Source of the DNA: a virus
Reading direction: 5' to 3' (one strand)
IMG/VR virus record: IMGVR_UViG_3300014202_001569
Span: 26,218-90,217 of that record
Length of the DNA: 64,000 bases
Below, in pieces: positions 29,973 through 48,600 of the stretch. A program made the translations under genes and the position numbers. The notes below the pieces were generated by a model. That model was not told the DNA's origin, did no database searches, and saw only the letters and a list, made by a program, of their open reading frames with translations. Numbering within the stretch: the first letter of the stretch is position 1; each line of letters starts with the position of its first letter.

Positions 29973-30203
29973 TTACGCTGCTTCCATCGCGGCGACGGTT
30001 CGCGGGAACTCTTGCCGCATCATGTCAGGGCGGGAGAGAAGCAACTTGCCCGCATCCGAACCCATGAACAGGTAGAAGAAGAGACGCTGCTGGTCCGCGT
30101 GACTGAGGCGATACTTGCGGTTGTAGGCGGCGACCTGGAAGCGGAAGTAGATGACAGCGATTGCCAGGGCGACGGCGGCGAGCGCGGCTTCGAGATACTT
30201 CAT
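29973..30203 (-). CDS. Cassette ORF, N-terminal TM, ends -EAA
   Basis: Motif 30240 and SD. Confidence 0.7.
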   Translation of the reverse strand: MKYLEAALAAVALAIAVIYFRFQVAAYNRKYRLSHADQQRLFFYLFMGSDAGKLLLSRPDMMRQEFPRTVAAMEAA

Positions 30204-30291
30204 CGCGTTTCTCCGTTGGGGTGTTTGGGCACCTAACTTGGTACAATTGCAATTAGAGGAGGATTGGGGAGTGGGCGAACTCCCCGTGAGG

Positions 30292-30480
30292 TTAGCTGTC
30301 GCTGTTGAACATACTGCCGATGACAGCGATCAGTGCGGTCAGGACGTGGCCTGCGCAATCCATGAGGTTGAAGGCAATCCAGAAGTTCCAGAAGCCTCCC
30401 TCGCTGGCGTGGTGAAACCAAGCCACCACTAGCACAGCCAGGACCAGGACCAGGGCGATAACCACTAAGACTTCCACCAT
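30292..30480 (-). CDS. Cassette ORF, membrane protein
   Basis: Motif 30517 and GGAGG SD. Confidence 0.7.
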   Translation of the reverse strand: MVEVLVVIALVLVLAVLVVAWFHHASEGGFWNFWIAFNLMDCAGHVLTALIAVIGSMFNSDS

Positions 30481-30568
30481 GACTTCCTCCGAGTTAGGTG
30501 TTTGGGCACCTTACTTGGTACAATCGCAATTAGAGGATGAATGGGGAGTGGGCGAACTCCCCTTCCCT

Positions 30569-30772
30569 TTACCTTGGCACTATGCTAAGCCAAGCCTTGC
30601 GGTTGCTCTCCAGTGCCTCCAGGTTCAATTGCACGGCACGGTCGAGGTCTGCGGTCAGCCCGCCCCGCCCATCGGGGTAAAGGGTACGGCCCTCATGGAC
30701 GATGGCGTATTCGATGCAATCCAGGCGGGTTTCGGCGGCGGTTGCGACTTCGGGCACGATGGCGGTCAGCAT
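30569..30772 (-). CDS. Cassette ORF
   Basis: Start corrected to MLTAIVPE after SD. Confidence 0.65.
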   Translation of the reverse strand: MLTAIVPEVATAAETRLDCIEYAIVHEGRTLYPDGRGGLTADLDRAVQLNLEALESNRKAWLSIVPR

Positions 30773-30847
30773 GGTTCTCTCCGTTGGGGTGTTTGGGCAC
30801 CTTACTTGGTACAATCGCAATTAGAGGATGAATGGGCGAACCGCCCT

Positions 30848-31021
30848 TTACGGGCGGCGGTGGTTCTTGTAGCGGTCGGAACGCGGCTGGCGGGCGGTGG
30901 GCTTGTCATCATAGTAGTTCGGCAGGTTCGCCATGTTACGGGCAGGGCGGGCCATGCCGTCAACGCTGGCGCGGCGTTCTGCGGTGGTCTTGGGACGCTT
31001 CAAACCGAACTGGCTGGCCAT
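30848..31021 (-). CDS. Cassette ORF, basic
   Basis: Start corrected to MASQFGLK. Confidence 0.6.
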   Translation of the reverse strand: MASQFGLKRPKTTAERRASVDGMARPARNMANLPNYYDDKPTARQPRSDRYKNHRRP

Positions 31022-31101
31022 GTTTGGACTCCGTTGGATTGGGCACCTAATATGGTACAATTGCAATTGGGGTATCATTAGGGCATCCTTGCCCTTGCCC
31101 T

Positions 31102-31290
31102 TTACTCCCCCTTCCATTGCCGCTGCTTGCGGGCTTGCTTGACCTTGCGGCGATTGCCACGCTTGTCAGCCATCGCAGCTTGTGCGATTTGGACGCCAAT
31201 CGGGAACAGGTTGCCAGGCTGCACAGTGGCGATGGTGATGGTGAAGCCATCGCGGGACAGACGCTTGCGGGGTTCGGTGGTATTATGCAT
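31102..31290 (-). CDS. Cassette ORF, basic
   Basis: Motif 31311 and GGAGG. Confidence 0.65.
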   Translation of the reverse strand: MHNTTEPRKRLSRDGFTITIATVQPGNLFPIGVQIAQAAMADKRGNRRKVKQARKQRQWKGE

Positions 31291-31358
31291 GTGTTCCTCC
31301 TACCTTAACTGGTACAATTGCAATTAAGGTATGTATGGGCATCCTTGCCCATTTCCCC

Positions 31359-31616
31359 TTAGTCGGTCGTGCGGCAATAGCACCTGTAAGCCTTGCCGTC
31401 GTTGGCGTAGACGATGAGGTTGAAGCTATTGCCGCTCCCATCTTCCCGTTGGATGCTGGACAGCGTGACAGGGATGCCATTGATGGAAATGACGGCGTTG
31501 CGGTTGCTCATTGCGTTGAACAGGGTGAACTTCGTCATGGGCGTTGCACAGCGGGTGAGGCGCTGTTCCATCGTGAGAGCCAGGGTAGCCGAACGGCGAA
31601 CGGTTGAAGTGAGCAT
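31359..31616 (-). CDS. Cassette ORF
   Basis: Start corrected to MLTSTVRR. Confidence 0.6.
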   Translation of the reverse strand: MLTSTVRRSATLALTMEQRLTRCATPMTKFTLFNAMSNRNAVISINGIPVTLSSIQREDGSGNSFNLIVYANDGKAYRCYCRTTD

Positions 31617-31704
31617 CTGCGTTTCTCCGTTTGGGGTGTTTGGGCACCTAATATGGTACAATTGCAATTAGAGAAAGCGGGGTTGGCTTTCCCCCGCTCT
31701 TGCT

Positions 31705-31872
31705 TTACTCCTTCTCGAACAGGATGATACACGGCTTGCCATCGGGATCAGTGCTGACGATAGCATCGTCCACGCTGACGATGGGGCCATCCTTGCGACC
31801 CAGGTAGACACCCATGCCATCGGTCGCGGTTGCCAGCAACTGCCGCAGAGCTTCGACCTTGAGCGTATCCAT
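31705..31872 (-). CDS. Cassette ORF
   Basis: Start corrected to MDTLKVEAL. Confidence 0.65.
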   Translation of the reverse strand: MDTLKVEALRQLLATATDGMGVYLGRKDGPIVSVDDAIVSTDPDGKPCIILFEKE

Positions 31873-31934
31873 TGTTCTCTCCGTTGGGGTGTTTGGGCAC
31901 TTTAAGGGGTACAATCGCAATTAGGGGATGATAC

Positions 31935-31958
31935 AAAAAAGGCAGGGTTTCCCCTGCC
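31935..31958 (-). terminator. Family-A cassette terminator (GGCAGGG-GAAA-CCCTGCC-U6), representative copy
   Basis: + strand aaaaaaggcagggtttcccctgcc; near-identical copies at about 33485, 34088, 34696, 36032 and 37357. Confidence 0.85.
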
Positions 31959-31964
31959 TTTCCT

Positions 31965-32243
31965 TTAGACTACCTTTTCGCACAGTTCATTCAGCTTGCA
32001 GGCGAGGTCGGGGGAGAAGCAATCCCACCGATGTTCGCATTCCTCGGCAATGGCCATGATCTGCCAGGCCACGTCTTCGGGGATATGGAACGTAATGTCC
32101 TCATCGGCGTCCCAATCCAGTTCATTGTCGGGCGGTTCGCAATGCACCCACAGCAGCTTGTAAAGGTCATGCCCGTGGGCATAGCGGTCGCCAACCCAAT
32201 CCAGAGCCTTACGTTCGCCAGCGGTCAGAGTCAGGTGATACAT
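31965..32243 (-). CDS. Cassette ORF, acidic
   Basis: Start corrected to MYHLTLTAG. Confidence 0.7.
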   Translation of the reverse strand: MYHLTLTAGERKALDWVGDRYAHGHDLYKLLWVHCEPPDNELDWDADEDITFHIPEDVAWQIMAIAEECEHRWDCFSPDLACKLNELCEKVV

Positions 32244-32286
32244 GGCTTTCTCCGTTGTTTGGGCACCTAATATGGTACAATTGGAA

Positions 32287-32487
32287 TTAGGCGGCTCCCT
32301 TCTTTTGCCATTCCCATGACCATTCACCAGAGCGCTGTTCAGTGCCGCTGCCCCTTGCCCAATTGCGTATGGTATACATGACGAAGCTGGGGACTTGCGT
32401 GACGTTCTGCATGTAGATTGCTCCCGCCCTTGGGACTGGAACATTGGCGAACTTGACACCGCGACGATAGATGCTGATTTGTTCCAT
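32287..32487 (-). CDS. Cassette ORF ending -GAA
   Basis: Start MEQISIYRR; its stop codon is the TAA of the next motif. Confidence 0.7.
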   Translation of the reverse strand: MEQISIYRRGVKFANVPVPRAGAIYMQNVTQVPSFVMYTIRNWARGSGTEQRSGEWSWEWQKKGAA

Positions 32488-32592
32488 GTTCGACTCCGTT
32501 GGGGTTGTTTGGGCACCTAATATGGTACAATTGCAATTTAGGGGATGATAGGAAAAAAGCGGGGGTGGCATTCCCCCCGCTCCCCCTAACGA

Positions 32593-32829
32593 TTACGCTG
32601 CGGTCTTGCGCCACGGCACGCTACGGCTGCCACGGGTGAAGCCAGTGGATTTGGCATCGGCAAGCCACGTTCGGCCTTCCTCGATGGCGTCATGTGTGCT
32701 GGGGAAGATGCCAGCGCTCTCCCAGCCTACATTGGCCACGCCACCGTCGCGGACATAGGCCACGTTGAAGTCGAATAGCTTGCGTTCGGGGTCGATGAAC
32801 AGCAACAGTTCTGCACGAAGGTCAGGCAT
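32593..32829 (-). CDS. Cassette ORF ending -KTAA
   Basis: Start MPDLRAEL. Confidence 0.7.
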   Translation of the reverse strand: MPDLRAELLLFIDPERKLFDFNVAYVRDGGVANVGWESAGIFPSTHDAIEEGRTWLADAKSTGFTRGSRSVPWRKTAA

Positions 32830-32910
32830 GATACACTCCGTTGGGGATGTGGGCACCTATATTGGTACAATTGCAATTGGAGATGATTAGGGCGTCCTTG
32901 CCCTGCCCCA

Positions 32911-33111
32911 TTAGGCTACCATGTCGCTGAGTTGTTCGCTCTGCCCCTTATTGGCGTTGAAGGGGTAGAGGTAGAAGCCGTGATTGATGGTGTTGCCCAT
33001 CCACCACGTCTGCCCCATGTGCGTTACCAGCATCATATAGCCATTCTTGGCCTTGCGGTAACAGAGGGGGCCGAAGCTGCGGGCGCGTTGCCGACTGATG
33101 TAGACTCGCAT
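32911..33111 (-). CDS. Cassette ORF ending -VA
   Basis: Start MRVYISRQ. Confidence 0.65.
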   Translation of the reverse strand: MRVYISRQRARSFGPLCYRKAKNGYMMLVTHMGQTWWMGNTINHGFYLYPFNANKGQSEQLSDMVA

Positions 33112-33190
33112 GATACTTCTCCAGGGGTTGCGTTGCACCTAATATGGTACAATTGCAATAAGGGAGAAAGGGAGTGGGCGACTCCCTGCC

Positions 33191-33412
33191 TTACGCGGCG
33201 AGCTTGGCGTTGTCCTCGAAGACGGGAAGGGCGAACACCGTGAAGCCCTTCGTGCTACCGTCGATGCTGGTGAGCTTGTCATGGGTTGTCCAGACTTCCT
33301 CGCCACCGATGGCGAGCTTGATGTTGCCGCTGTCCGTTTCGGCAATGCACTTGCCGATCTTGCCGTTGAACAGAAACCGCTTGTTCACAAAGTAGGTCGT
33401 GACTTCCATCAT
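33191..33412 (-). CDS. Cassette ORF ending -KLAA
   Basis: Start MMEVTTYF. Confidence 0.7.
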   Translation of the reverse strand: MMEVTTYFVNKRFLFNGKIGKCIAETDSGNIKLAIGGEEVWTTHDKLTSIDGSTKGFTVFALPVFEDNAKLAA

Positions 33413-33518
33413 CTGCGTTTCTCCGTTTGGGGTGTTTGGGCACTTAACTTGGTACAATTGCAATTAGGGGATGATACAAACGAAAAAAGGCAGGGTTTGC
33501 TGTCCCCTGCCTTACCCC

Positions 33519-33797
33519 TTATTCCTTTTCGGTCAGTTGCGCCTTATGCTTGGCGATGAAGGCGCGAATGTCGGCCTGCATATCCAGCACCTGCTCCCAT
33601 TCGTCGCGGTAGAGCGTGACGGGGAATCGCCGCAAGCCGTCAAGCTGCACGGCACCCTTGGGAGATACCTTGAGGGTGAGCTTCTTCTTCGTCGCGGCCT
33701 TGACCTGTTCCGCCGAATTGTCCTCGATCAGCTTCGCGGCCTGCGCCTCGGTGAGCTTGCCATCCTTGACCTGCTGCATGATTTCGAGTACGTTCAT
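33519..33797 (-). CDS. Cassette ORF (FPVTLY..EW-type hypothetical protein)
   Basis: Motif 33837 and SD. Confidence 0.75.
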   Translation of the reverse strand: MNVLEIMQQVKDGKLTEAQAAKLIEDNSAEQVKAATKKKLTLKVSPKGAVQLDGLRRFPVTLYRDEWEQVLDMQADIRAFIAKHKAQLTEKE

Positions 33798-34116
33798 CTG
33801 CGTTTCTCCGTTTGGGGTTGATTGGGCACCTTATCTGGTACAATTGCAATTAGGGGATGATACGAAAAAAGGGAAGAGAGGCGAACCTCTCTTCCCAATG
33901 GTGAGTTAGCGTCGTCGCCTTGACTGCCATTTTGTGTCGGGCTTAGACCGCCAGTTTACGTCGGGCTTAGACGGGCCACACTTCGCAGGCTCCCCAGCTA
34001 CGGGACGTTTGTAGTGCGGGGTAACGTCCCATCCGACCCCTTCACTACTAATCTTGGTACAATTGCAATTAGGCCATGATGCAAACAAAAAAAGGCAGGG
34101 TTTCCCTGCCTTAGCC

Positions 34117-34347
34117 TTACGCGGCCAGCGCCTTCAAGTCCAGCGTACAGGTGGGGCGCTTGGCGAAGCGGTCGGGAAACCGCCTGAACTCCCGCAAAGC
34201 CTGCACCTCATCCCACCTTCCAGGGATGGTACGCTCCGCGATCACCTCCTTGCCCATGCGGACGTAGATCGTGGTCAGCGTCTTTTTGACGCTGCCGTTG
34301 CGCTGGGTGAAGGTGGACACGCCGACGTTCAGCTTGCCGATCAACAT
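34117..34347 (-). CDS. Cassette ORF ending -ALAA
   Basis: Motif 34384 and SD. Confidence 0.7.
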   Translation of the reverse strand: MLIGKLNVGVSTFTQRNGSVKKTLTTIYVRMGKEVIAERTIPGRWDEVQALREFRRFPDRFAKRPTCTLDLKALAA

Positions 34348-34433
34348 GCGTCAGACTCCGTGGGGTTGTTGGGCACCTAATATGGTACAATTGCAATTTG
34401 AATCATATTGGGAGTGGGCGAACTCCCAATTGT

Positions 34434-34628
34434 TTAGTTCTGGCGATACTTGGCGATAGCTTCCGCCAGCGATGCCTCCATCGTCTTGCCAGCCTGCACG
34501 CCAGCCATCGTGTCATTCCGCAGCTTGCCGAGGTCCATGATGTTGAACTGAATGCAATTGCCCTGCGTGCGGAACGCATCATCGAAAGCCTTCTCCAGCG
34601 CCTTCTCAGCCTTGCTCATTCGTGCCAT
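34434..34628 (-). CDS. Cassette ORF
   Basis: Start MARMSKAE. Confidence 0.7.
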   Translation of the reverse strand: MARMSKAEKALEKAFDDAFRTQGNCIQFNIMDLGKLRNDTMAGVQAGKTMEASLAEAIAKYRQN

Positions 34629-34729
34629 TGTCTTTCTCCGTGTTGGGGTGTTTGGGCACTTAACTTGGTACAATTGCAATTAGGGGATGATAGAAAAAAA
34701 GGCAGGGTTGCTGTCCCCTGCCTCACCCC

Positions 34730-34972
34730 TTAGACCTTTGCCAGCAGCTTCGCCCACTTCTCATGCTGTTTCCAGTGGGCGCAGACGTGTTGTTTCTCCC
34801 GCAAAGCGGTGCGGATACGCTCACGAATCTCATGCGTCTTGTAAGCGTAGGTGCAAGTCGCCCACAAGTCCTCGGAGAAGGCAAGCAAGGTCAAAGCCTG
34901 CTCATACTCCTCATTGTTGACCAGAGCCAGGATAGCGTCTTTCTGGCGGATCAGAGCGTTGTCAAGTTCCAT
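34730..34972 (-). CDS. Cassette ORF
   Basis: Start MELDNAL. Confidence 0.7.
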   Translation of the reverse strand: MELDNALIRQKDAILALVNNEEYEQALTLLAFSEDLWATCTYAYKTHEIRERIRTALREKQHVCAHWKQHEKWAKLLAKV

Positions 34973-35061
34973 GTTCGACTCCGTTAGTTGGGCACCTAAC
35001 TTGGTACAATCGCAATTAGAGGATGAATGGGGCAAGGTTTGCTTTCCCTTGCCCTTCCCCT

Positions 35062-35415
35062 TTACTTTAGGTAGACAATACCATGTGCGGTCAGGCACTT
35101 GCCGAAGTCATCGGAGAACACGCTGCCCCGTGCGTGCTTTGCGGGGGCTTTGAAGCCAGCCGCCTTATGAATGTCGCCCGCCTTGAGAGCGCCAAGCGTT
35201 TTGGTGAAGCCGTCTTGCAGGCAGATGAAGCAATAGACGCTAGTTGGTTCCCGCTTGCCGTTGCGTTCCTCCAGCACCACGACACGCGCCCACTTGTCAC
35301 TGATGAAGTCAGCGCGATGGGTGGGAGGTGCGGAGTAAGTGTAGCCCATCTGCTTCCAGTGTTCCGCCGTCACTTCGTCGGCCCGCGTCACAAAGGCGTC
35401 GATGCGATCTTTCAT
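35062..35415 (-). CDS. Cassette ORF, conserved phage hypothetical protein
   Basis: Start MKDRIDAF; SVYCFI...GDIHKAAGFKAPAKHARGSVF. Confidence 0.75.
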   Translation of the reverse strand: MKDRIDAFVTRADEVTAEHWKQMGYTYSAPPTHRADFISDKWARVVVLEERNGKREPTSVYCFICLQDGFTKTLGALKAGDIHKAAGFKAPAKHARGSVFSDDFGKCLTAHGIVYLK

Positions 35416-35461
35416 GATTCTCTCCGTTGGGGTTTGGGCACCTAACTTGGTACAATTGGAA

Positions 35462-35638
35462 TTAGGCCACTTGGTATTCGTGTTCCCCAATAACAATCAT
35501 ACCACCGAAGAATTGCCACGTTGGGCTTGACGCCAGTGCCGCTGTATGCTCTTTCTCCAGAGCAGGCATATCGGCCTTGATTTGTTCCGCCGTCAAGTCC
35601 TCACGGGTGTCACGATGATACGCTGCGATGATCTTCAT
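35462..35638 (-). CDS. Cassette ORF ending -VA
   Basis: Start MKIIAAYH; stop codon fused to the motif. Confidence 0.65.
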   Translation of the reverse strand: MKIIAAYHRDTREDLTAEQIKADMPALEKEHTAALASSPTWQFFGGMIVIGEHEYQVA

Positions 35639-35715
35639 GGTCAACTCCAGGGTTTGGGCACCTTACATGGTACAATCGCAATTAGGGTATAAAGGGAGTG
35701 GGCGACTCCCTGCCC

Positions 35716-35967
35716 CTAATCCCCTTCGTAGTCTGGCCCATAGTGATTCTCGAAGTCCTCCATTTCCTGGCGTTCGAGGATAACGTCGTGCGCCAATTCC
35801 GCATCCCAACTATCCTCGAAGTTGTCCTCATCGTCATCATCGTCATCATCGAAGATGGAAGGGCCGTCGCCATCGGAACAGCAAGGGCAAGGCGGGTCGC
35901 AAACGTCGCAGCGATTGTTGCCGTTGCAATCCTGGTCCAGTTCGTTACCGCAACCACAGTAAGGCAT
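35716..35967 (-). CDS. Cassette ORF, Cys-rich N-terminus and hyper-acidic C-terminus
   Basis: CGC..C....C..C.PPCPCC followed by a DDDDDDDEDNFED tract. Confidence 0.7.
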   Translation of the reverse strand: MPYCGCGNELDQDCNGNNRCDVCDPPCPCCSDGDGPSIFDDDDDDDEDNFEDSWDAELAHDVILERQEMEDFENHYGPDYEGD

Positions 35968-36063
35968 GGCGTTCTCCAGTTTGGGGTTCGTTGCACCTAA
36001 TATGGTACAATTGCAATTAGGGGATGATAAGAAAAAAGGCAGGGTTTCCCCTGCCCTTCCCCT

Positions 36064-36324
36064 TTACGCGGCGGCTTTGGCGGCTTGTTTCGGTGTCTTC
36101 TTGGCATGGGATGCCAGGATGCCTCGCACCTCGACGGATTCGAGTAGGATGTGCCGCAACACGTTGTCGATGTTGCCGCGACGGACTAACTCCGAACCAA
36201 TCGAAGACGCCAGAAGCGCTTTCAGCTTCTCCAGTGCCTCGCATTCCGTTTCGTGGCGACGCGCTTCATCGCGGTTGGTGAATTGCTTGCCGTCAGCGGT
36301 CTGAAACAGAGAAACAACCTTCAT
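36064..36324 (-). CDS. Cassette ORF ending -KAAA
   Basis: FQTADGKQFTNRDEARRHE N-terminus. Confidence 0.75.
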   Translation of the reverse strand: MKVVSLFQTADGKQFTNRDEARRHETECEALEKLKALLASSIGSELVRRGNIDNVLRHILLESVEVRGILASHAKKTPKQAAKAAA

Positions 36325-36375
36325 GGCAAAACTCCAGGGGTTTAGTGTTACACACCTTTACTGGTACAATTGGAA

Positions 36376-36576
36376 TTAGACACCAGCTGCCAGTGACGCC
36401 ACATACTGGAAGCGATAGACAAACCATTTGTCGCGGCTGTCTTCGGGCCGCACGCGGATTACCTTGCGGTCATGGACGTAACTCGCGTGCAGAGCGGCAG
36501 AGCGGGAGCAACTGGCCTGATAGATACCCTTGTAGCACCAGTGCCGACCGTACTTGATTTCCACTTCAAACCGCAT
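36376..36576 (-). CDS. Cassette ORF
   Basis: Motif 36610; stop codon fused to the next motif. Confidence 0.7.
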   Translation of the reverse strand: MRFEVEIKYGRHWCYKGIYQASCSRSAALHASYVHDRKVIRVRPEDSRDKWFVYRFQYVASLAAGV

Positions 36577-36656
36577 GGTAGACTCCGTTAGGTGTTGGGC
36601 ACCTATTATGGTACAATTGCAATTAGGGTATTATTAGGGCATCCTTGCCCTGCCCC

Positions 36657-36920
36657 TTAGACCATTGCCTTGCCACGCTTGCCGTCGATGCAATCCTTTG
36701 CGGTGCGATACCATTCCGTGCCATCGGACCATGCACGCCATTTCTTGCCGTAGTTGTTCGGGTCGGGATGCCCTGACAGCATGAAGAAGCCAGGAACGCT
36801 CCAGAGGTAGACGGTATCGCCATTGGCCAATGCTGCTTCCAGGTCGGGAGCAAGGGCCGCATAGGGGCGCTTACCGCCAGGGGAAAGGTAGTCACGCAGC
36901 TTGAAGTCTACTTTCGCCAT
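36657..36920 (-). CDS. Cassette ORF
   Basis: Start MAKVDFKL. Confidence 0.7.
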   Translation of the reverse strand: MAKVDFKLRDYLSPGGKRPYAALAPDLEAALANGDTVYLWSVPGFFMLSGHPDPNNYGKKWRAWSDGTEWYRTAKDCIDGKRGKAMV

Positions 36921-37002
36921 GATTGACTCCAGTTTGGGTATCGTTGCACCTATTATGGTACAATCGCAATTAGGGTATAATGGAGTGGGCGACTCCATTG
37001 CC

Positions 37003-37299
37003 CTACGCTGCCTTTTGCTTGGCAAGAAGCCATTCGTAGGCTTGTGCCCAGGCATATTCGCGGTCGAAGCGGCCCCAACCGAAATCCCCGCAAGGATGTG
37101 CCTCAAAGTAATGCGGGCTTTTGTCGAGAGTAAACTTGATGCTGCATTCCGCCATGCCGTCGTTGAAGATGTGTTCTTGCCACTGATAGCCCGCTGCCAG
37201 GAACGCTTTCTGAATCTTTTCGATCATGACTGACTCCTTTGGGGTTGCGTTGCACCTAACATGGTAGCCCTTTGCGTCACACATCAGAAGCCATCGCAT
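37003..37299 (-). CDS. Fused cassette ORF ending -KAA (internal second start at 37227)
   Basis: MRWLLMCDAKG is in frame with MIEKIQKAF across a half-motif. Confidence 0.6.
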   Translation of the reverse strand: MRWLLMCDAKGYHVRCNATPKESVMIEKIQKAFLAAGYQWQEHIFNDGMAECSIKFTLDKSPHYFEAHPCGDFGWGRFDREYAWAQAYEWLLAKQKAA

Positions 37300-37387
37300 T
37301 GCTATTCTCCTTTGCGTTGCACCTATTATGGTACAATTGCAATTAGGGGATGATAGGAAAAAAGGCAGGGTTTCCCCTGCCTTCCCG

Positions 37388-37630
37388 TTAGGCGGCGATT
37401 TTCTCGGTAACGTCGAAGAGAAGCCATTCCTTGGCATTGGCTGGCGTGATGTAGAAGAAATCCCACAGACCATGCTTGACTGGCAACTGCCATTCCGTGG
37501 GACGAGTTTTCCACGTTTTCAGCTTGCCATTGACACGGCAGCGCTTGGCCGAACCATCCGAATTGCGGGCGGTCTTGTGGTAGATCGTCTTGCCCTTGTA
37601 GAAACCAGCGGCCAATTCCTTCGTAATCAT
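37388..37630 (-). CDS. Cassette ORF ending -KIAA
   Basis: Start MITKELAA; RVNGKLKTWKTRP motif. Confidence 0.75.
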   Translation of the reverse strand: MITKELAAGFYKGKTIYHKTARNSDGSAKRCRVNGKLKTWKTRPTEWQLPVKHGLWDFFYITPANAKEWLLFDVTEKIAA

Positions 37631-38538: not shown

Positions 38539-38539
38539 G

Positions 38540-40647: not shown

Positions 40648-40682
40648 GTTTGTTCTCCTTACCTAAACTGGTACAATTGGAA

Positions 40683-40871: not shown

Positions 40872-40951
40872 GTTTGTTTTCTCCTTACCCAAACTGGTAC
40901 AATCGCAATTAGCCCTAAACGAAAAAGGGCGGGATTGCTCCCGCCCCACCC

Positions 40952-42061
40952 CTACTTCTTATTGAATAAACCCTTCAAGATGGAATCTTCCGCCTTCAAC
41001 CATACCTCCTTGAGCGGAACCTTATGCTTGCGGGCATTGAACAACACGCCAGTAAACACCGTCTCACCCTCAATCAAGATGGCAAAATCCTTCTGGTTCT
41101 CTTCATCCTTGACGCAGTGCCACAACGATTCCAATTCATTGTAAGCACCATCTACCTTGCCCTTGTAATGCTTGAAACAATCCGTAATTTCAGGATACGT
41201 CGCAAGCAATTCGTCGCCTTCACCCTCCAAGATGAACGGCAACAGAGTCGAAGGATTGTAAAGCGCGTCACCATTCGCACCCTTCATCTTATGCAGCGAT
41301 AGATAACGCTTGTTCTTGATCTTCCAACGACGGTTCGCGTCATCCTTCACAACGCAACCTTCCCACGTCGCTTCTGGCTGCGAATTGACGTAATCCGTTA
41401 CGTCGTCAGCACTTCGGAGCGAATACTGGCCAACCGTCTTGAACAGTGGGACATTTTGCGGGCCAACTTCTTCTTCGCCACAGAATGCGGAAAGCTGGTA
41501 GACGCACGGCTGAGCATACTCCCGAACCACCTTGTTCCAAAGGGAGCAAAACTCGCAAGCGTAACTCAACGAAGGATCAAGGTACAATTGTAATTCTTGC
41601 AAGTCCTTGATGCCCAGCGCCTGTAAGATACCTTCCTTCCAGGTGAAGGAAGCTGGCATCTTATGGTAGTTCGCCTGCCATTCGGTGTTGAACATGCCCA
41701 TGTTCGCGTAGGAACCACGGGTATTCACACGCCATTCGCCATCGAAGTGATAGAACAGCAGCAAGCTGCCGTCTACCTTCTCCAGCGCAACAGACTTATC
41801 CCAATTGAACAGCGGCATTTCGTCCGCTACTTCACCCCAATTGAAAAATCGGGGGAAGGCACGCGCCACCAGCGAATGGTCCTCAGTGTTGAGAACTAAG
41901 CCACGGCATTCGCGGACAATGGGATCAGTCTTCGGAGAGTCGATTTGGCTATAGTTCAGGATAGCCAGGGGAAGCGTATCATGGCGATTGACGGAGATAT
42001 GTAGTTCCGTTTCCAGGTCCGTCAGAGTCTTGCCAGAACGCAGATAGTCGATAGTCTTCAT
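40952..42061 (-). CDS. rnl1: RNA ligase, T4 Rnl1 family
   Basis: RECRGLVL, RAFPRFFNWGE, EKVDGS (adenylation Lys), EGCVV, KIKNKRY. Confidence 0.9.
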   Translation of the reverse strand: MKTIDYLRSGKTLTDLETELHISVNRHDTLPLAILNYSQIDSPKTDPIVRECRGLVLNTEDHSLVARAFPRFFNWGEVADEMPLFNWDKSVALEKVDGSLLLFYHFDGEWRVNTRGSYANMGMFNTEWQANYHKMPASFTWKEGILQALGIKDLQELQLYLDPSLSYACEFCSLWNKVVREYAQPCVYQLSAFCGEEEVGPQNVPLFKTVGQYSLRSADDVTDYVNSQPEATWEGCVVKDDANRRWKIKNKRYLSLHKMKGANGDALYNPSTLLPFILEGEGDELLATYPEITDCFKHYKGKVDGAYNELESLWHCVKDEENQKDFAILIEGETVFTGVLFNARKHKVPLKEVWLKAEDSILKGLFNKK

Positions 42062-42120
42062 TTTCTTTCTCCTCTAATCTAATTGGTACAATCGCAATTA
42101 GAGGAGAAAGGGACGGCCCC

Positions 42121-42510
42121 TTATTGGGGGCCATCTTCCTGCTTTCTCCTCTTTTTGGGTGTTGCCAGTGGCATCATGGGAGGCATTCCGCCTTGCTGTT
42201 GCTTGGCACCGTCCTGCTGCGCCTTGACGAACTCTTCCGTAACACGCATCAGGTTCAGGTATCGACAGTCCAGGGTCAGAACAGGTTCACTCGGATCAGA
42301 CAAAAGTTTGCCCACAAAGTAGGGCAGGCAAATTGCCTGAATGTGCAAGCTCTGGCCCATGATCGGCGCACCGTCTTCCGTCTTTTTCAGGTTGTAGACG
42401 CAGACGTACTGGCCAACCTCAAGATCGTCTTCCGCCAGCATCACCCCCACGCGCTTGCGAGGCGTTTCTTCCATCGCGTCGTCATAGTCTTCTTGTTCTT
42501 GTCCAATCAT
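42121..42510 (-). CDS. Hypothetical protein
   Basis: Motif 42547 and GGAG SD. Confidence 0.65.
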   Translation of the reverse strand: MIGQEQEDYDDAMEETPRKRVGVMLAEDDLEVGQYVCVYNLKKTEDGAPIMGQSLHIQAICLPYFVGKLLSDPSEPVLTLDCRYLNLMRVTEEFVKAQQDGAKQQQGGMPPMMPLATPKKRRKQEDGPQ

Positions 42511-42559
42511 CGCTTTCTCCAGTTAAGGTTAGTTACACCCTAGATTGGTACAATTGCAA

Positions 42560-42805
42560 TTAAATCGCCATCCGTTCTGACAACCAGTTAGGAATGGAGT
42601 CCGCTGAACCGTTGTATACATACTGCCCATTACTAGACCACTTGAAAAAGTGAAAGTTGTCGTTCTGGACATTATAAACGGCAATGCGGTCTAAGTCAAC
42701 CACGTTAAAGTAGCGGACGCCATAGAACTTACAAATCCCTTCGACCGTTCTTAAAGCGTCCACCAGCTTGATTACTTCTCCCAAGGGGCTTTCGACGCTA
42801 GACAC
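42560..42805 (-). CDS. Hypothetical protein
   Basis: ORF track; stop codon fused to the motif. Confidence 0.55.
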   Translation of the reverse strand: MSSVESPLGEVIKLVDALRTVEGICKFYGVRYFNVVDLDRIAVYNVQNDNFHFFKWSSNGQYVYNGSADSIPNWLSERMAI

Positions 42806-43212
42806 CGCTCAACCGTTAAAGGTTCACAGCGGTTTCGCATCGCCTCCACCTTGTCCTGCGGCACCCCATGCACGTTCTGAAACGAACCGTGACAAGGGAA
42901 GAAGAACACTGGCACCCCAAGCTCTTGCGCCATCTCGACATACGGCTTGGCTTCCCATGCCTGCGTATTCGTATTGTCGATAATGACCGTCTGACCGAAC
43001 TCCAAGGCTTGCCGTGCCATCTTCTGATTGATAGCGTGATACACGCCAACCTTCGACGGGTCGAATTTATAAACGCCGTCCACCTCAAATTGCTTATCGG
43101 TGGAACAGACCTTCACATCATGACCCAGCGCCACCAGCATAGCCCGAATCGTCTCAGCTACGGTGGACTTGCCCGAACCACTCGGACCCTGCATGATTGC
43201 GAGAATGTTCAT
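42772..43212 (-). CDS. AAA_33/N4BP2-like polynucleotide kinase
   Basis: MQGPSGSGKST P-loop, VIIDNTN, NVHGVP. Confidence 0.85.
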   Translation of the reverse strand: MNILAIMQGPSGSGKSTVAETIRAMLVALGHDVKVCSTDKQFEVDGVYKFDPSKVGVYHAINQKMARQALEFGQTVIIDNTNTQAWEAKPYVEMAQELGVPVFFFPCHGSFQNVHGVPQDKVEAMRNRCEPLTVERCLASKAPWEK

Positions 43213-43428
43213 GTTTGCTCCTTTTGATTGCCCATTATATCTGGTACAATCGCAATTAGCAAGAGAGGGGAAAAGGGCGGGTTTGCTGTCCCCGCCCGCA
43301 TCATCAAAGCTGTCTAATTAAGTGTCGGCACTTGATTTCGGGCGCTAGAGGCCAACCCCCTAGCGCCCAGCTATCAGCCGCAGAATAGGTATGTTCCTTG
43401 CATTTAATATCATTTAAGGTTTCCTTTG

Positions 43429-43632
43429 TTACGCCGCTGCTCGACGTTGCCCGATGTGATCGTTCAGGGCAGAAATGGAGCAGCTATGCCAGAACTTCTC
43501 AATCAATAGCGGACGCCAGCCCTTCCCATACCAGATTTGCGCAATCGCCAGCGCCGTCTCACGCTCTTTCGCCGTAAACTCCTGATAGAGTTCACCTTCC
43601 ACTGGATGCGTACCCTTCAAGCCATACAGCAT
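43429..43632 (-). CDS. Hypothetical protein ending -RAAA
   Basis: Start corrected to MLYGLKG after GGAGG; the longer track start overlaps the tRNA. Confidence 0.65.
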   Translation of the reverse strand: MLYGLKGTHPVEGELYQEFTAKERETALAIAQIWYGKGWRPLLIEKFWHSCSISALNDHIGQRRAAA

Positions 43633-43661
43633 TGCAAGCCTCCGAATAGAGAAAAGGTCAG

Positions 43662-43736
43662 TACCGCTAGGGGGATTTGAACCCCGCATTTTCTGGTTGA
43701 AAGCCAGGTGTCCTATCCAGATTAGACGATAGCGGC
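43662..43736 (-). tRNA. trnE: tRNA-Glu(UUC), CCA not encoded
   Basis: GCCGCTA acceptor; CTGG-CTTTCAA-CCAG anticodon arm; GGGG-TTCAAAT-CCCC T-arm; 3' A then CTG. Confidence 0.92.
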
Positions 43737-43743
43737 ATAACAG

Positions 43744-43830
43744 TGAGCCGAGTAGGAGTTGAACCTACAATGCGCTAGCTAGGCGCGCCTGGGTTACAGC
43801 CAGGTGGACTTGCCAATGTCCAATCGACTC
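43744..43830 (-). tRNA. trnY: tRNA-Tyr(GUA), long variable arm, CCA not encoded
   Basis: GAGTCGA/TCGGCTC acceptor; CCTGG-CTGTAAC-CCAGG; GTAGG-TTCAACT-CCTAC. Confidence 0.92.
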
Positions 43831-43863
43831 ATTTGGGCGACACCTAGTTTGGTACAATTGCAA

Positions 43864-44082
43864 TTACGCTTCCTTGTAGTAATCGTCTTGCGGCTGCCGC
43901 ATATCGAAGGGAAAGTATTCCCGTCCCGCCAGCGGCATATCCTCACTGTTAATCGGGTCGCCGTCTTCCGTTTCCCACTCAACGCCACCATGATCGTGAA
44001 TCTTGAACTCTTGCTTGATACATTCCCCCGCGTCATTGAACGTCTGTTCCACAACGCCAGGGGAAAACTTCTTGAACAGCAT
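43864..44082 (-). CDS. Acidic hypothetical protein
   Basis: Stop codon fused to the motif. Confidence 0.65.
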   Translation of the reverse strand: MLFKKFSPGVVEQTFNDAGECIKQEFKIHDHGGVEWETEDGDPINSEDMPLAGREYFPFDMRQPQDDYYKEA

Positions 44083-44092
44083 GTTAGCTCCT

Positions 44093-44263
44093 TTATTTGC
44101 GAAGACGCTCTTTATGGTACAATTGCAATTTCTCTTCCATCTTCGCCACCAATTCCGCTGGTGCCTTCACCCATTTCAGCCAGTTGATTGTGTTCTGCCC
44201 ATCATTGAACCAATCGAAGCGTTCGATCAGTTCAGGATGGGTCAGAACAGCACGCACAATCAT
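44093..44263 (-). CDS. 56-aa ORF containing the motif (KLQLYH)
   Basis: Manual translation MIVRAVLTHPEL...KERLRK*. Confidence 0.55.
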   Translation of the reverse strand: MIVRAVLTHPELIERFDWFNDGQNTINWLKWVKAPAELVAKMEEKLQLYHKERLRK

Positions 44264-44264
44264 G

Positions 44265-44522
44265 TTACGCCGCCTTCTTTGTCTGCTGCTCCATCACAGT
44301 TAGCTCCAGATAGATCGGGAGCAGGTAGACGTTCGTGGGCTTGCCCTTCTGCCCTTCCACCTTGCGGGGCTTGCCCATCTGACAGTGGCCCAGCTTCACC
44401 AGCGTTTTCAGGAAACCCTGCGCATCCATGTAGTCCAAACCGTTCGCATCAGCCAGTTCCTTGATGCTCACCTCATGCACGCAGTCATAAGGCTCATTCA
44501 CTTTCAGCTTCTTCGGAATCAT
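44265..44522 (-). CDS. Winged-helix-like protein ending -KKAA
   Basis: VSIKELADANGLDYMDAQGFLKTLVKLG...GKPTNVY. Confidence 0.6.
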   Translation of the reverse strand: MIPKKLKVNEPYDCVHEVSIKELADANGLDYMDAQGFLKTLVKLGHCQMGKPRKVEGQKGKPTNVYLLPIYLELTVMEQQTKKAA

Positions 44523-44630
44523 CGTTTCCCCTTGTTTGAAGTTCGTTGCACCTTAACTGGTACAATCGCAATTAGAGGATGAAAAAACAAAGAAAGGGGA
44601 AGGGATTTTACTCCCCTCCCCCCTTAGACG

Positions 44631-45005
44631 TTACGCGGCGGGCCGACCACGCTTGAACGTGATGCCCTCGGCTTCCGCAACCTGTCGGCACAAGGTCAGT
44701 GACACCTTGAGCTTGCGTTCCTTGCGGAGAAACTCGCGGCCCTTCGTGTAACCGAACCGCTTCAGCGCCGCTGCCACGATTCGACGGTCAGTGCCGTTGT
44801 AGACGCGGGGCCGACCTGGACCACGTTCACCCTTTGCCTTCACCTTGACGGGCTTGACCTGCTTGCGGGGGCCACGTTCCACCCCCTTATCGACACGCGG
44901 CATACGGTAGACATAAAAGCCCTCCGTAGTCAGCTTGCCACGGCACTGCGGGCCGACTTCATCCCGCACAACCCGCCCACCAAAGTTCAGTTCGTTCGCA
45001 GCCAT
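44631..45005 (-). CDS. Basic putative DNA-binding protein ending -PAA
   Basis: RGPGRPR and KRGRP AT-hook-like motifs. Confidence 0.6.
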   Translation of the reverse strand: MAANELNFGGRVVRDEVGPQCRGKLTTEGFYVYRMPRVDKGVERGPRKQVKPVKVKAKGERGPGRPRVYNGTDRRIVAAALKRFGYTKGREFLRKERKLKVSLTLCRQVAEAEGITFKRGRPAA

Positions 45006-45071
45006 GAGAAACCTCCAGAGAAAAGAGAAAGTTTGTTACTCGCACTTAGTTTGGTACAATTGCAATTGGAA

Positions 45072-45548
45072 TTAGAACCTTACCTTGTTCCAAGTCCAGA
45101 CGAACGGATACGCAACCGCCGTCTTGATTCGTTGCCACGCAGCCGCCTTCATCTCAGCGATGATTTCGGCCACCATCCCCCGCACCACTTCCTTGTTCAC
45201 CAGCGCCGCACAATGTTCCTTCACTTGCGCCAGCACCGCTTCCTTGATGTCATCATACTTGCTCTCAATGCAAGTCTCGATTTCATCCTTTGCCTTCACC
45301 TCGATTTCATCCCACCAGTCGTAATCCCGCACCGCATCATGGATTGCGTCGGAGAAGTCGTGGTCATTCATCGCCTTCTCAACCGCATCGTCCACGTCGA
45401 TTTCGTCGCGGATAGCACTCTTCACCTCGTCGGAGAAGTCGTGATTCTCCAGAGCCGACTCCACCTCATCCTTGAAGTCACGCTCACCAAGATACGCCTC
45501 GATGCCTTCATTGATGATCGTTTCCAACTGCTCGCCAAGTCCGCTCAT
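45072..45548 (-). CDS. Acidic helical-repeat protein
   Basis: HDFSD repeated; very D/E-rich. Confidence 0.7.
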   Translation of the reverse strand: MSGLGEQLETIINEGIEAYLGERDFKDEVESALENHDFSDEVKSAIRDEIDVDDAVEKAMNDHDFSDAIHDAVRDYDWWDEIEVKAKDEIETCIESKYDDIKEAVLAQVKEHCAALVNKEVVRGMVAEIIAEMKAAAWQRIKTAVAYPFVWTWNKVRF

Positions 45549-45600
45549 GTGTTCCCCTTGCGTTTGAGTTCGTCACACAATCATTCTGGTACAATTGCAA

Positions 45601-45801
45601 TTAGGTGGGATTCCCGTTTTCATCCACGTCGTTCCCGTCAGCATCTTCGATACTGAACACGTCGAATGTATCTTCGACGTACTTCACTTCGTCATCTTCG
45701 GGAATGTTCATGTTCGCAATCAGGTCCGCAAGGTCTTCGGGCTTACAACGTATCGTTGTCTTGAGCCGCACTTCGACCTCGACCGTGTATTCTTTCTCCA
45801 T
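45601..45801 (-). CDS. Acidic mini-protein
   Basis: Stop codon fused to the motif. Confidence 0.7.
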   Translation of the reverse strand: MEKEYTVEVEVRLKTTIRCKPEDLADLIANMNIPEDDEVKYVEDTFDVFSIEDADGNDVDENGNPT

Positions 45802-45914
45802 TTGCTCCCTTTCATTTTGAAACTCGTTGCACCCTTACTGGTACAATCGCAATTAGGCACTGTACAAAAAAATAGGGCAGCCACCATTGGCTGCCCTACA
45901 CACAAGGGATTGAT

Positions 45915-46649
45915 TTACGCGGCTGCCTTGTCCGTCCCGAACAGCAAGTCCTTTGCGTAACCATACAGACGGTTCAAGACGCCTAGCGGACTATCACTCA
46001 CCCCTACCTTGAGGTGCGATAGGAAGTGAACGGGACGCAACACCTTGATACAAGCCAAGATGCCTTCCTTCGAGGGAACATACATCGCCAACCGCTCGAA
46101 GAATCCATCCTTAATCTCATACTTTTCCACTGGTGCCAGCATCAAGCGCCGTTCGTCATCGCTGAAATTGTCCATCAGCAACTTCATCAAGCGGCCCGCA
46201 AGCTCTTGCTCAATCGGCGCACCCTGGATAAGCTCAGAAAACGGACGAATCGTGGTCTTATCTTCACACGCAACCTCATTCGTCACCAGCTTATCCGCCA
46301 TATCCGCCGTCAAACCCGCCTTGACCAGCGCCGATACCAACTTCTCTTTCGCCCCGCCCTGGCATTCAGGATCAGCCTGCGGATAGAACTTGGCCTGCAC
46401 TTGGAACAAGCCCTCAATATCCGCCTTGCCGTCCCGCGTCACAATGAGACGGGGATTCGTCGGCTTGCAACGTAGCTTGGACAAACTCTCAGCGAATGAG
46501 TCAATCAGACTCTCTTTCAGGATACCCTCTTCCGCCTTCATACGGGCCTCAGCCTTTTCGTAGATTTGCTTCGCATAAGCAAACCGCTCAAAGGACGGCA
46601 GCAACGCGGCGGATACAGGAACCTGCGGACGATCTTGCTTCTTAGCCAT
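45915..46649 (-). CDS. Hypothetical protein ending -KAAA
   Basis: Start corrected to MAKKQDR; the longer track start overlaps the tmRNA-like RNA. Confidence 0.75.
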   Translation of the reverse strand: MAKKQDRPQVPVSAALLPSFERFAYAKQIYEKAEARMKAEEGILKESLIDSFAESLSKLRCKPTNPRLIVTRDGKADIEGLFQVQAKFYPQADPECQGGAKEKLVSALVKAGLTADMADKLVTNEVACEDKTTIRPFSELIQGAPIEQELAGRLMKLLMDNFSDDERRLMLAPVEKYEIKDGFFERLAMYVPSKEGILACIKVLRPVHFLSHLKVGVSDSPLGVLNRLYGYAKDLLFGTDKAAA

Positions 46650-46711
46650 CGGTCGTTCTCCCCTTTTGGTGAAAGTGTCGGAACACCTAGTTTGGTACAA
46701 TTGCAATTCAG

Positions 46712-46847
46712 TGGACCAGTCGGGAATTGAACCCGATTCCAGTCGATTTGCTGACAAACTACGCTACTTGTGTTGAGGCATCTTTTCGCGTCTGACCTAC
46801 CACGGTCAAGCCTGTCACTTGGATCGCTGTCGAAACCTGTCTGGCCC
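46712..46847 (-). ncRNA. ssrA: Minimal tmRNA-like RNA (136 nt)
   Basis: GGGCCAG/CTGGTCC-A acceptor with G3.U pair; ACAGGTTTCGAC D-loop; P2 helices AGCGAT/ATCG(A)CT and TGACAGGCT/AGTTTGTCA; GGAA connector; TCGGG-TTCAATT-CCCGA T-arm. Confidence 0.8.
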
Positions 46848-46861
46848 GATTGTGTAAGTTA

Positions 46862-46994
46862 GCCCCTAGCGGTTATCGTCGCCGCACCTACCTGCAAAGC
46901 CTAGCGTACCATTGGCCACTGGCACGTCCTACATGGCATGTATACCCACCATTAAGAGTCGGCTCCAGGTCGCACTACATTATGCGATAGGGGC
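46862..46994 (-). ncRNA. Unknown structured RNA (133 nt), tRNA-like closing stem
   Basis: GCCCCTA/TAGGGGC terminal stem; internal stems TCGCA/TGCGA, CCTG-GAGCC/GGCTT-TG-CAGG, TACAT/ATGTA, CGTGCCA/TGGTACG and GCGG/CCGC; 5' end 9 nt after GTACC. Confidence 0.65.
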
Positions 46995-47070
46995 AACTTA
47001 ACTGGTACAATCGCAATTACATCATGCCCTAAAAAAGGGGAAGGGCTTTCGCCCCTCCCCCTCGGCCCCC

Positions 47071-48087
47071 TTAGACCGCAAGCCCGCTGGCCATTTCCAC
47101 CGCTGCGGACAGCGCCAGCTTGTTCATGGTGTTGTTCTGGCCAAACCAGAGCGAATTGAGTCGGTTGTCCTCATTCCGCCCGTTGACGTAGCTGAGATAC
47201 TCAGTCACGCCATTGTAGGCACTCCAGTACGTTCCCCGAACGCTAGGCAGGTTGTTCCCCTTGCCCGCTTCACAAAGCTCAATCACCTCTTCCAGAATGT
47301 TCTTCTGGCGTTCGGAAACCACTTCCTTCAACTCCTTGGAACGCTCCCCCGCCGTCCAGATGGCGCTATCCTCCGCGTCCACCTTGAACACCCGCTTGAC
47401 ATACTTGCGGAGGTCATTCTGGTTAATGCTCTTATTAACCAGCAAGCGATACTGCTCAGCAGTCGCCTCGAACTCCGCATTCATCAAGTTCATAACGTCC
47501 CGAAGATTTTCGAGATTCGTATGAATGTTCTTGCTATGCTTCAAGCGAATCAGCTTGGAAGCATCAGCGGAATGCGCCATCGAAAGCGTATTCCAGCAGA
47601 CCACGCGAATCGGCGTGAACCCGCAACGAACCGCCAAGCTACCGTCGTGGCTATGGCTGAGAAGAATGTACTTCTCAACCACATCCCCCGCCGCAATCTC
47701 CATCGGATCACGGTTCAGCTTAGCCAGCGCCCAAATGCGGCTGCCTTCAAACAGCGCCCCACCAGTATGCAGGGCCGCTTCCTTCTGGTCCAACCACGGT
47801 TGAAACCAGCCGAACGCCTCTTGATTCTGGAGAATCGTGTAGCGCTCACCCACCATGTTCGCCAACACCTTGCCATCAGTGGAACGAACCACTTCCCACG
47901 CATCAGCAGGCACCCACGCATCATTCACCTTGCGGGCCAACTGACGCTTCTCCGCGTCCCAATTCAGGCCAGCTTTCTCGATGAACAACTTGTGGTCATA
48001 CATCGCCGCCTCTTCCGTGACCGCCGTACCCAAACCATGCCACGGCGTTGCACCCACGAAAGCCATCGACTCAACTGCTGCAACCAT
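47071..48087 (-). CDS. DUF932 (TIGR03299-like) phage/plasmid protein
   Basis: VESMAF...PWHGLG, GALFEGSRIW, LLSHSHDGS, FTPIRVVCWNTL, GTYWSAYNGVTEY. Confidence 0.85.
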   Translation of the reverse strand: MVAAVESMAFVGATPWHGLGTAVTEEAAMYDHKLFIEKAGLNWDAEKRQLARKVNDAWVPADAWEVVRSTDGKVLANMVGERYTILQNQEAFGWFQPWLDQKEAALHTGGALFEGSRIWALAKLNRDPMEIAAGDVVEKYILLSHSHDGSLAVRCGFTPIRVVCWNTLSMAHSADASKLIRLKHSKNIHTNLENLRDVMNLMNAEFEATAEQYRLLVNKSINQNDLRKYVKRVFKVDAEDSAIWTAGERSKELKEVVSERQKNILEEVIELCEAGKGNNLPSVRGTYWSAYNGVTEYLSYVNGRNEDNRLNSLWFGQNNTMNKLALSAAVEMASGLAV

Positions 48088-48210
48088 GTTTCTCTCCCTT
48101 AAAGTAAAGTTTTCGGTTCCCTTGTGCCTTAACTGGTACAATTGCAATTTGGCCAAATCCAACTTCCCTTATCTTACCCCAAAAAACACCAATGTAAAAA
48201 GGAAGTCAGA

Positions 48211-48600
48211 TTACGCCGCCGCCTTCAAATTGTCTGGTGTACATGTTTCCAGGTCCACCACCGCAGCCAACGGATTGTCCACCCTCGGCTTTAACCACGC
48301 CAAGAACTGTTCCCTTGTATAGCTTCCTTCCTTCACCATCTTGCAATCCTCAACCTTGATCGGCGTCTTGTCCCACCACGGACGCTCTGGCTTCTTACGT
48401 TCCTTTACCGAATAAATGTTGCCAGCCTTCCTTTTGACCAAAGTAACGCGGAAATAATCCGTGAAAACGAAAGCCCCATAAATGTGCATCTTCCGCACAT
48501 CTATCGCCATCGTCTTCGGATTACCCGTCTTCGTAAATTCCCCCGTCTCTATGAAATAACGCTGGCATTCCGCCATCCACCGACTATTGTGCTGCTTCAT
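48211..48600 (-). CDS. Hypothetical protein ending -KAAA
   Basis: Start corrected to MKQHNSRW. Confidence 0.7.
   Translation of the reverse strand: MKQHNSRWMAECQRYFIETGEFTKTGNPKTMAIDVRKMHIYGAFVFTDYFRVTLVKRKAGNIYSVKERKKPERPWWDKTPIKVEDCKMVKEGSYTREQFLAWLKPRVDNPLAAVVDLETCTPDNLKAAA

Follow-up and report, generated by a model that had tools for sequence, protein, structure and literature searches.

Small genes in a huge-phage cassette array end in Ala-Ala, a candidate gene-encoded ssrA-type degron

We analysed a 64,000-nucleotide stretch of viral DNA (hereafter the window; IMG/VR record IMGVR_UViG_3300014202_001569), which carries on its minus strand an array of about 55 one-gene cassettes. Fourteen of the small genes in this array encode a free C-terminal Ala-Ala, with two alanine codons (GCN-GCN) standing directly before the stop codon. 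We consider it probable, though well short of certain, that this Ala-Ala end is a gene-encoded ssrA-type degron (the ClpX "C-motif 1") that shortens the life of a subset of early proteins.

Ala-Ala ends in the cassette array

The window corresponds to bases 245,656-309,655 of one 340,934-bp record (the 341-kb record) from an uncultured huge phage, and the array occupies window positions 28785..48655 on the minus strand. On the coding strand, each cassette comprises a block resembling a promoter (AATTGCAATTGTACC or a slight variant of it), a conserved GGAG leader, an ATG 35-60 nt past the block and a small open reading frame (ORF). Most cassettes also have a GC-rich hairpin, which may or may not carry a T run. 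From the positions of promoters, Shine-Dalgarno (SD) sequences and ATG codons we curated a set of 53 array ORFs (28.8-48.6 kb, minus strand). Ala-Ala ends were found in 14 of these 53 genes, where fewer than 0.5 would be expected; the binomial p-value is 2e-17 if calculated from the alanine frequency (9.3%) and 3e-18 if calculated from the rate of internal Ala-Ala dipeptides (0.75%). As a control on the same DNA, we took all other six-frame ORFs of at least 40 aa from this stretch. Only one of these 161 shadow ORFs ends in Ala-Ala, at an alanine content of 8.0% (Fisher p = 9e-9).

In the rest of the 341-kb record, a codon model called about 487 genes, with a single doubtful ORF that ends in Ala-Ala (Fisher p = 2e-14). 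Downstream copies of the same promoter serve 88 other same-strand genes at 48.7-91 kb, and none of these has such an end; the tails are confined to the GC-rich cassettes with a leader and an SD sequence. An earlier note, made from the letters of the window, had listed the 14 C-termini and had stated that no gene at 1-28.4 kb ends in Ala-Ala. All 14 are present at the stop positions it gave on the minus strand, and our gene calls confirm the second statement. The same note had named beforehand the loss of enrichment after correction for GC-driven alanine usage as the outcome that would speak against its idea; the enrichment against genome-wide C-termini survives this correction and is confirmed. 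The 14 genes (named below by their first coordinate) and four with related ends are as follows.

29973..30203, minus: 76-aa ORF with a hydrophobic N-terminus, ending MEAA
32287..32487, minus: 66-aa ORF ending KGAA, with its stop codon within the next promoter
32593..32829, minus: 78-aa ORF ending KTAA
33191..33412, minus: 73-aa ORF ending KLAA
34117..34347, minus: 76-aa ORF ending ALAA; homologue in phage L019 (see below) ending KLAA
36064..36324, minus: 86-aa ORF ending KAAA; orthologue in phage G001 (see below) ending KVAA
37003..37299, minus: 98-aa ORF ending QKAA
37388..37630, minus: 80-aa ORF ending KIAA; 9/9 close homologues ending TE[KQ]xAA
40447..40647, minus: 66-aa ORF ending GKAA; relatives ending KKAS and QLQFA
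43429..43632, minus: 67-aa ORF after tRNA-Tyr and tRNA-Glu, ending RAAA; orthologues ending RQAA and RKVA
44265..44522, minus: 85-aa ORF ending KKAA; orthologues ending KVAA and RAAA, with tails otherwise unalignable
44631..45005, minus: 124-aa ORF ending RGRPAA, with two AT-hook-like motifs (RGRP/GRPR); ending identical in three relatives
45915..46649, minus: 244-aa ORF ending GTDKAAA, the tail being a 6-7-residue add-on after the last helix
48211..48600, minus: 129-aa ORF ending LKAAA; 25/25 database homologues ending in Ala-Ala
47071..48087, minus: 338-aa DUF932 protein ending GLAV; orthologues ending GMAV and QMAA
32911..33111, minus: 66-aa ORF ending DMVA, conserved in G001
35462..35638, minus: 58-aa ORF ending YQVA, not conserved (YQVC, YQVTE)
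37752..37931, minus: 59-aa ORF ending LYVA; orthologues ending LYLA and LYVQ

Thirteen of the 14 Ala-Ala genes have their own promoter copy, TT[GC][GC][AG]ATTGTACC (mostly AATTGCAATTGTACC), 35-60 nt upstream, followed by an SD sequence and an ATG. The fourteenth, at 43429, starts at a GGAGG-ATG just past tRNA-Glu, and the gene is conserved in relatives. Scans of the 14 proteins against Pfam and PHROGs returned no informative family. Among the related ends, the -LAV terminus reported earlier for the gene at 47071 is present, while only three of the four reported -VA termini were found (32911, 35462 and 37752).

The array differs in composition from its surroundings, and we asked how far the ends could be explained without any function. 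The array is GC-rich (51-57% against 41-47% elsewhere in the phage), alanine makes up 9.3% of its residues against 6.4% in the rest of the genome, and the cassette joints fall into a few repeat families, all of which would be compatible with Ala-Ala ends that arise without function from GC or alanine content, from wrongly called ORFs, or from recombination in which the terminator-promoter joints take the final codons with them. However, neither the shadow ORFs nor the internal dipeptide rate reproduces the excess, the Ala-Ala genes use every joint type, and the orthologues in three phages as well as up to 25 homologues keep Ala-Ala next to residues that vary. These controls all but exclude an artefact of composition or recombination, and we give an end without function almost no probability.

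Conservation of the terminal dipeptide

Three related phages share gene order and have diverged promoters: G001 (IMG/VR contig 3300037137_001027, 159.5 kb), L019 (FKKE01015098.1) and LR756511.1, a published complete 595-kb record that is syntenic. Ala-Ala ends are found in 11 of 47 promoter-proximal ORFs in G001 (p = 2e-13) and in 7 of 35 in L019 (p = 9e-9), and in LR756511.1 about 6 of about 40 array genes have them, compared with 11 of about 950 genes elsewhere. Nine of the 14 window genes have orthologues in G001 or L019, and Ala-Ala is kept in 12 of the 16 orthologue comparisons, at protein identities of 41-83%. The tail of the DUF932 protein reads LAV, MAV or MAA in the three phages.

The larger families resolve the pattern residue by residue. 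In the family of the 48211 gene, all 25 homologues (48-100% identity) end in Ala-Ala. Positional entropy is zero at -1 and -2 and rises to 2.3-2.7 bits at -3 to -7, where a hypervariable tail of 2-6 residues and of varying length follows a conserved ETCPPDN. Among 36 full-length homologues of the 45915 protein, the 16 that end in Ala-Ala are all 69-98% identical to the query and carry an add-on of 4-7 residues (pattern x-x-x-A-A) after a conserved LLFG; homologues at or below 63% identity stop at the core (MICG), and several intermediates have other short tails. The TE[KQ]xAA end of the 37388 gene, invariant among its close homologues, belongs to a wider family in which 29 of 88 members end in x-Ala (AA 14, VA 8, the rest IA, LA, MA, TA and WA). 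The terminal dipeptide alone is constant, which is the mark of selection on the Ala-Ala end itself.

In the 44631 protein, G001 and L019 share all of the last eight residues with the window, and LR756511.1 retains GRPAA. Its AT-hook-like motifs read PGRPRV and KRGRPAA, and the product is probably a DNA-binding protein.

Common ancestry of the genes was considered as a cause and rejected, as an all-against-all BLASTP comparison of the 53 proteins gave no pair at E < 0.01. A DNA motif at the gene ends, or alanine codons hitchhiking with the joints, was ruled out by the differing 3' flanks and the varied codons. The sequence after the stop codons of the 14 genes comprises three or four hairpin types, the next promoter, an overlapping next gene or unrelated sequence; in one type of flank the next promoter abuts the gene and its TAA serves as the stop codon. 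Neighbouring genes that share these joint types do not end in Ala-Ala. The codon pair itself varies, with GCC, GCA or GCG followed by GCG or GCC, and orthologues often swap synonymous alanine codons and stop codons (TAA, TAG, TGA) while retaining Ala-Ala. The differing flanks, this codon variation and the lack of paralogy together place the signal at the protein level.

Candidate readers and rival explanations

The best candidate for a reader is ClpX. No part of the ssrA degron matters more to ClpXP than the Ala-Ala carboxy terminus (Ala-Ala-COO-), and ClpXP also has substrates among other cellular proteins with an Ala-Ala end (Fei et al. 2020, PMC7652416). We infer that the axial pore of a ClpX-type unfoldase would take hold of a short exposed tail with Ala-Ala-COO-, the unfoldase being that of the host or, in this clade, the phage's own, and that the tailed protein would then be fed to ClpP and degraded. 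Host-takeover proteins with such tails would be limited to a brief window after infection, and judging from their ends they are probably built to be short-lived. The array is presumably expressed early, a status read solely from the gene layout.

The degron reading requires that the tail be accessible. ClpXP needs a protruding degron, as it degrades GFP-yalaa but not GFP-laa (Fei et al. 2020, PMC7652416), and the degron needs an unstructured tail reaching about 5 or more residues out from the fold (PMC7652416). Two of the 14 proteins were modelled with AlphaFold2. In the model of the 45915 protein (33-row alignment), the mean predicted local distance difference test score (pLDDT) is 79, the last helix spans residues 221-237 and a coil spans 238-244, with pLDDT below 50 at 240-244; the distant homologues lack this tail. 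Such add-on tails, as modelled, fit the requirement for a protruding degron.

The following features bear on the machinery that could read and degrade the tails.

LR756511.1 193145-194503 (L028:846-2204), minus: ClpX, 452 aa, ending SEAA; E = 5e-131 to E. coli ClpX
20890-21501 (window), plus: ClpP-family serine protease, 203 aa; PF00574, 70 bits against a cut-off of 20.2
46709-46847 (window), minus: mini-tmRNA (transfer-messenger RNA); Rfam RF00023, 48.1 bits against a gathering threshold of 47
L014:8880-9026 (G001) and L019:2660-2836: mini-tmRNA homologues

The relative LR756511.1 encodes a ClpX that appears fully equipped to read an ssrA-type end. It has the zinc-finger cysteines, GYVG (pore-1 loop), ITRDVSGEGV (pore-2 loop, with T199 and V202), GGRKHP (RKH loop) and an IGF loop; GYVG, ITRDVSGEGV and GGRKHP are identical to E. 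coli, and all residues named in PMC7652416 as critical for reading ssrA (E. coli Y153, V154, T199, V202, R228 and H230) are present. This ClpX itself ends in Ala-Ala. The same end was seen in 8 of the 80 IMG/VR ClpX loci kept by our search (L029-L034, L037 and L097), including 6 of the 7 closest, whose contigs measure 90-459 kb; it is absent from E. coli ClpX. An Ala-Ala-ended ClpX could be self-limiting.

The window carries a ClpP-like gene near the array. The earlier note had pointed to a phage ClpP, and this holds as far as family and active site are concerned: the product of 20890-21501 has a Ser-His-Asp triad that aligns with solved ClpPs (the PDB alignment starts at residue 54). The relationship is distant, however, and among PHROGs the protein matches head-maturation proteases best. 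Next to it lie genes of RNA repair, a CCA-adding enzyme and a polynucleotide kinase (PNK)-like gene, and not head genes. In both G001 and LR756511.1 the gene is conserved within a few kb of the array; all three phages with sufficient sequence have such a ClpP-like gene, with an intact triad, in its vicinity.

The mini-tmRNA, which the earlier note had named alongside the proposed short half-lives, lends no support to a degron. Aligned across the window, G001 and L019, the three RNAs show no conserved tag frame. They share a GCC after an A-rich stretch. The frame read from it encodes ASTQVA before a stop in the window and Ala before a stop in G001, where the product would be Ala-Ala, and it has no stop close by in L019. 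We therefore dropped the link between the mini-tmRNA and the tails. SmpB is absent from G001 and LR756511.1.

Several observations weigh against a ClpX degron. Searches of the 341-kb record, including tblastn with the LR756511.1 ClpX, found no ClpX, AAA_2 domain, ClpX zinc finger or SspB, and the sole generic AAA protein (332 aa) has no Clp features. The record is incomplete, as a 121-aa protein (P0126) on a contig of 623,153 bp matches residues 9-129 of the 48211 ORF exactly. The full phage is therefore probably about 620 kb long, with the record covering roughly half, and it may carry ClpX in the part not covered; failing that, reading would fall to the enzyme of the host. Disorder is no more than moderate in the second AlphaFold2 model, that of the 48211 protein: the mean pLDDT is 87, falling to 66 over the last nine residues, with a weak helix at 123-128. 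Tails are also lost, with KKAS or QLQFA in relatives of the 40447 gene, GAAK in the L019 orthologue of the 45915 gene and KVA in an orthologue of the 43429 gene, and the tag thus seems dispensable in places. Finally, the residues before the dipeptide are not those of ssrA. The hydrophobic residue (leucine) of an LAA end stands at -3 in just 2 of 14 genes, and the residues seen at -3 are A, K, L, T, G, I, P and E. For E. coli ClpX, residue -3 matters less than the Ala-Ala itself. Lysine or arginine stands at -3 or -4 in 12 of the 14 Ala-Ala genes compared with 15 of the 39 others (p = 0.004), and the final alanine codon is GCG in 11 of 14 against an internal usage of 34% (p = 8e-4), which leaves room for a minor nucleotide or termination-context effect.

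The basic residues, which are not an ssrA feature, and the preference for a final GCG raise the possibility that the reader is not an AAA+ protease. The end could be a docking or localisation signal for a factor of the phage or the host, or could affect termination or ribosome release on very short mRNAs; in keeping with the latter, hairpins begin 0-10 nt past many of the stop codons. However, Ala-Ala is kept whether the gene is followed by a hairpin, a promoter or an overlapping gene, and also across changes of stop and alanine codons, while neighbours with the same hairpin types lack it. Nor did searches for PDZ_2 and S41 (Tsp-like) domains detect a reader of that kind in the 341-kb record or in LR756511.1. 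We regard a reader other than an AAA+ protease, or an effect on termination, as improbable.

Another possibility is that the tails serve to occupy the protease rather than to be cleared by it. Abundant Ala-Ala-ended early proteins would saturate a limited pool of ClpXP (proteolytic queueing), with the result that other substrates of ClpXP, among them phage proteins, ssrA-tagged products or host regulators, would become more stable, or that host quality control would be disabled. Such titration relies on the same tails as the degron reading, the 14 genes each have their own strong-looking promoter and SD sequence, and LAA-tagged proteins are described as competing for ClpXP in synthetic circuits (PMC12013620, 10.1101/136812). 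Yet a decoy needs no 14 unrelated folded proteins with conserved bodies, and a phage-encoded ClpX in the clade would add capacity instead of exhausting it. We give titration little probability as the main role; it could operate together with turnover, and the tails alone do not separate the two.

If turnover of the tailed proteins is the role of the ends, it is tempting to speculate that the clade runs its own proteolytic timer, composed of the Ala-Ala-tagged phage ClpX and either the phage ClpP-like protease or host ClpP. Clearance of the tagged immediate-early set would force the phage from host takeover into replication, after which ClpX would dispose of itself. In that case the tails would form a phage-controlled temporal programme at the protein level and not a passive use of host quality control. 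We consider this extension rather unlikely.

Array context and comparison with known systems

The promoter-like block occurs in 82 copies in the record, 80 of them on the array strand across 62 kb. Promoters have diverged among the relatives while the layout is kept: AATTGCAATTGTACC in the window (28947-63681), AATTGNGGTTGTACTAA in G001, AACTSCRGTTGTACCTT in L019 and approximately AGCTGTACTAA in LR756511.1, with only a TGTAC core common to all four. Co-evolution of the promoter with a polymerase or factor of each phage's own would produce such a pattern. A search of IMG/VR for the exact motif gave 12 single scattered matches and no close relative by that route. At promoters beyond the array (48700-64000 and on to 336 kb of the genome), the ATG often lies 9-10 nt past GTACC with no SD sequence, so that these transcripts look leaderless. 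One promoter within the array, at 34068 (33880-34068, minus), is followed by about 170 nt up to a hairpin with a T run and by no convincing ORF, only a 21-codon frame; the transcript may be a small RNA or encode a micro-peptide.

The array region (28400-49000) lies 10-15 GC points above the remaining genome, of which hairpins and leaders explain only a part. LR756511.1 is similar, with its first 22 kb at 50% GC against 42%. In G001 (L014:16452-16952), the family of the 40447 gene has undergone a tandem duplication (about 90% DNA identity), and both copies end KQLQFA. A homologue of the 48211 ORF (P0147) is filed under a Nitrospira metagenome-assembled genome on a 52-kb contig, which is a binning artefact or a weak hint of the host. 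RNA-repair genes sit within and near the array, as listed here with the tRNA genes.

40952-42061: Rnl1-like RNA ligase, in the array
42772-43212: AAA_33 kinase, in the array
43661-43830: tRNA-Tyr and tRNA-Glu, in the array
17433-19022: CCA-adding enzyme, near the array
19204-19866: PNK-like ORF, near the array

Temporal control in phages is usually explained by transcription. With a degron-bearing early block, a second layer would come from a programmed lifetime of the proteins, and in relatives the phage supplies its own ClpX. A conserved Ala-Ala on an otherwise variable C-terminus could serve as a sequence flag by which to find, among huge-phage ORFans, transient proteins of host takeover or anti-defence, and the tails would offer synthetic biology natural minimal degrons of graded sequence. 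In the literature we found no paper on systematic Ala-Ala tails across a block of phage early genes; the closest precedents are the following three systems.

The first is the ssrA tag itself, together with natural ssrA-like "C-motif 1" degrons of ClpX (Flynn et al. 2001, 2003, as cited in PMC7652416 and PMC12723719). The phage tails resemble these in their free C-terminal Ala-Ala, in a short and apparently exposed tail, and in the -VA or -AV variants found alongside. In contrast, they are encoded in the gene, whereas the ssrA tag is added by trans-translation; the residues before Ala-Ala are mostly Lys/Arg plus any residue, where ssrA has Tyr-Ala-Leu; and the tails come without an SspB-binding head.

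The second is bacterial ribosome-associated quality control, where RqcH extends proteins with alanine tails (Lytvynenko et al. 2019, as cited in PMC7652416). As described there, C-terminal alanines act as a ClpXP degron independently of the remaining ssrA sequence, which is the property we propose for the phage ends. RqcH tails, in that account, follow translation stalls on aberrant products, whereas the phage alanines are templated on normal genes.

The third is the integration-dependent immunity system of the mycobacteriophages BPs, Brujita and Charlie, in which Int and the viral Rep are described as carrying ssrA-like tags (Broussard et al. 2013; PMC9635641). These tags are likewise hard-wired, and by that account they tie Int and Rep levels to ClpXP-type proteolysis in the host. 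There, the tagged proteins are two regulators of the lysis-lysogeny decision in small temperate phages. Here, about a quarter of some 55 unrelated small genes carry the end, in a clade of huge phages with a relative that encodes both ClpX and a ClpP-like gene.

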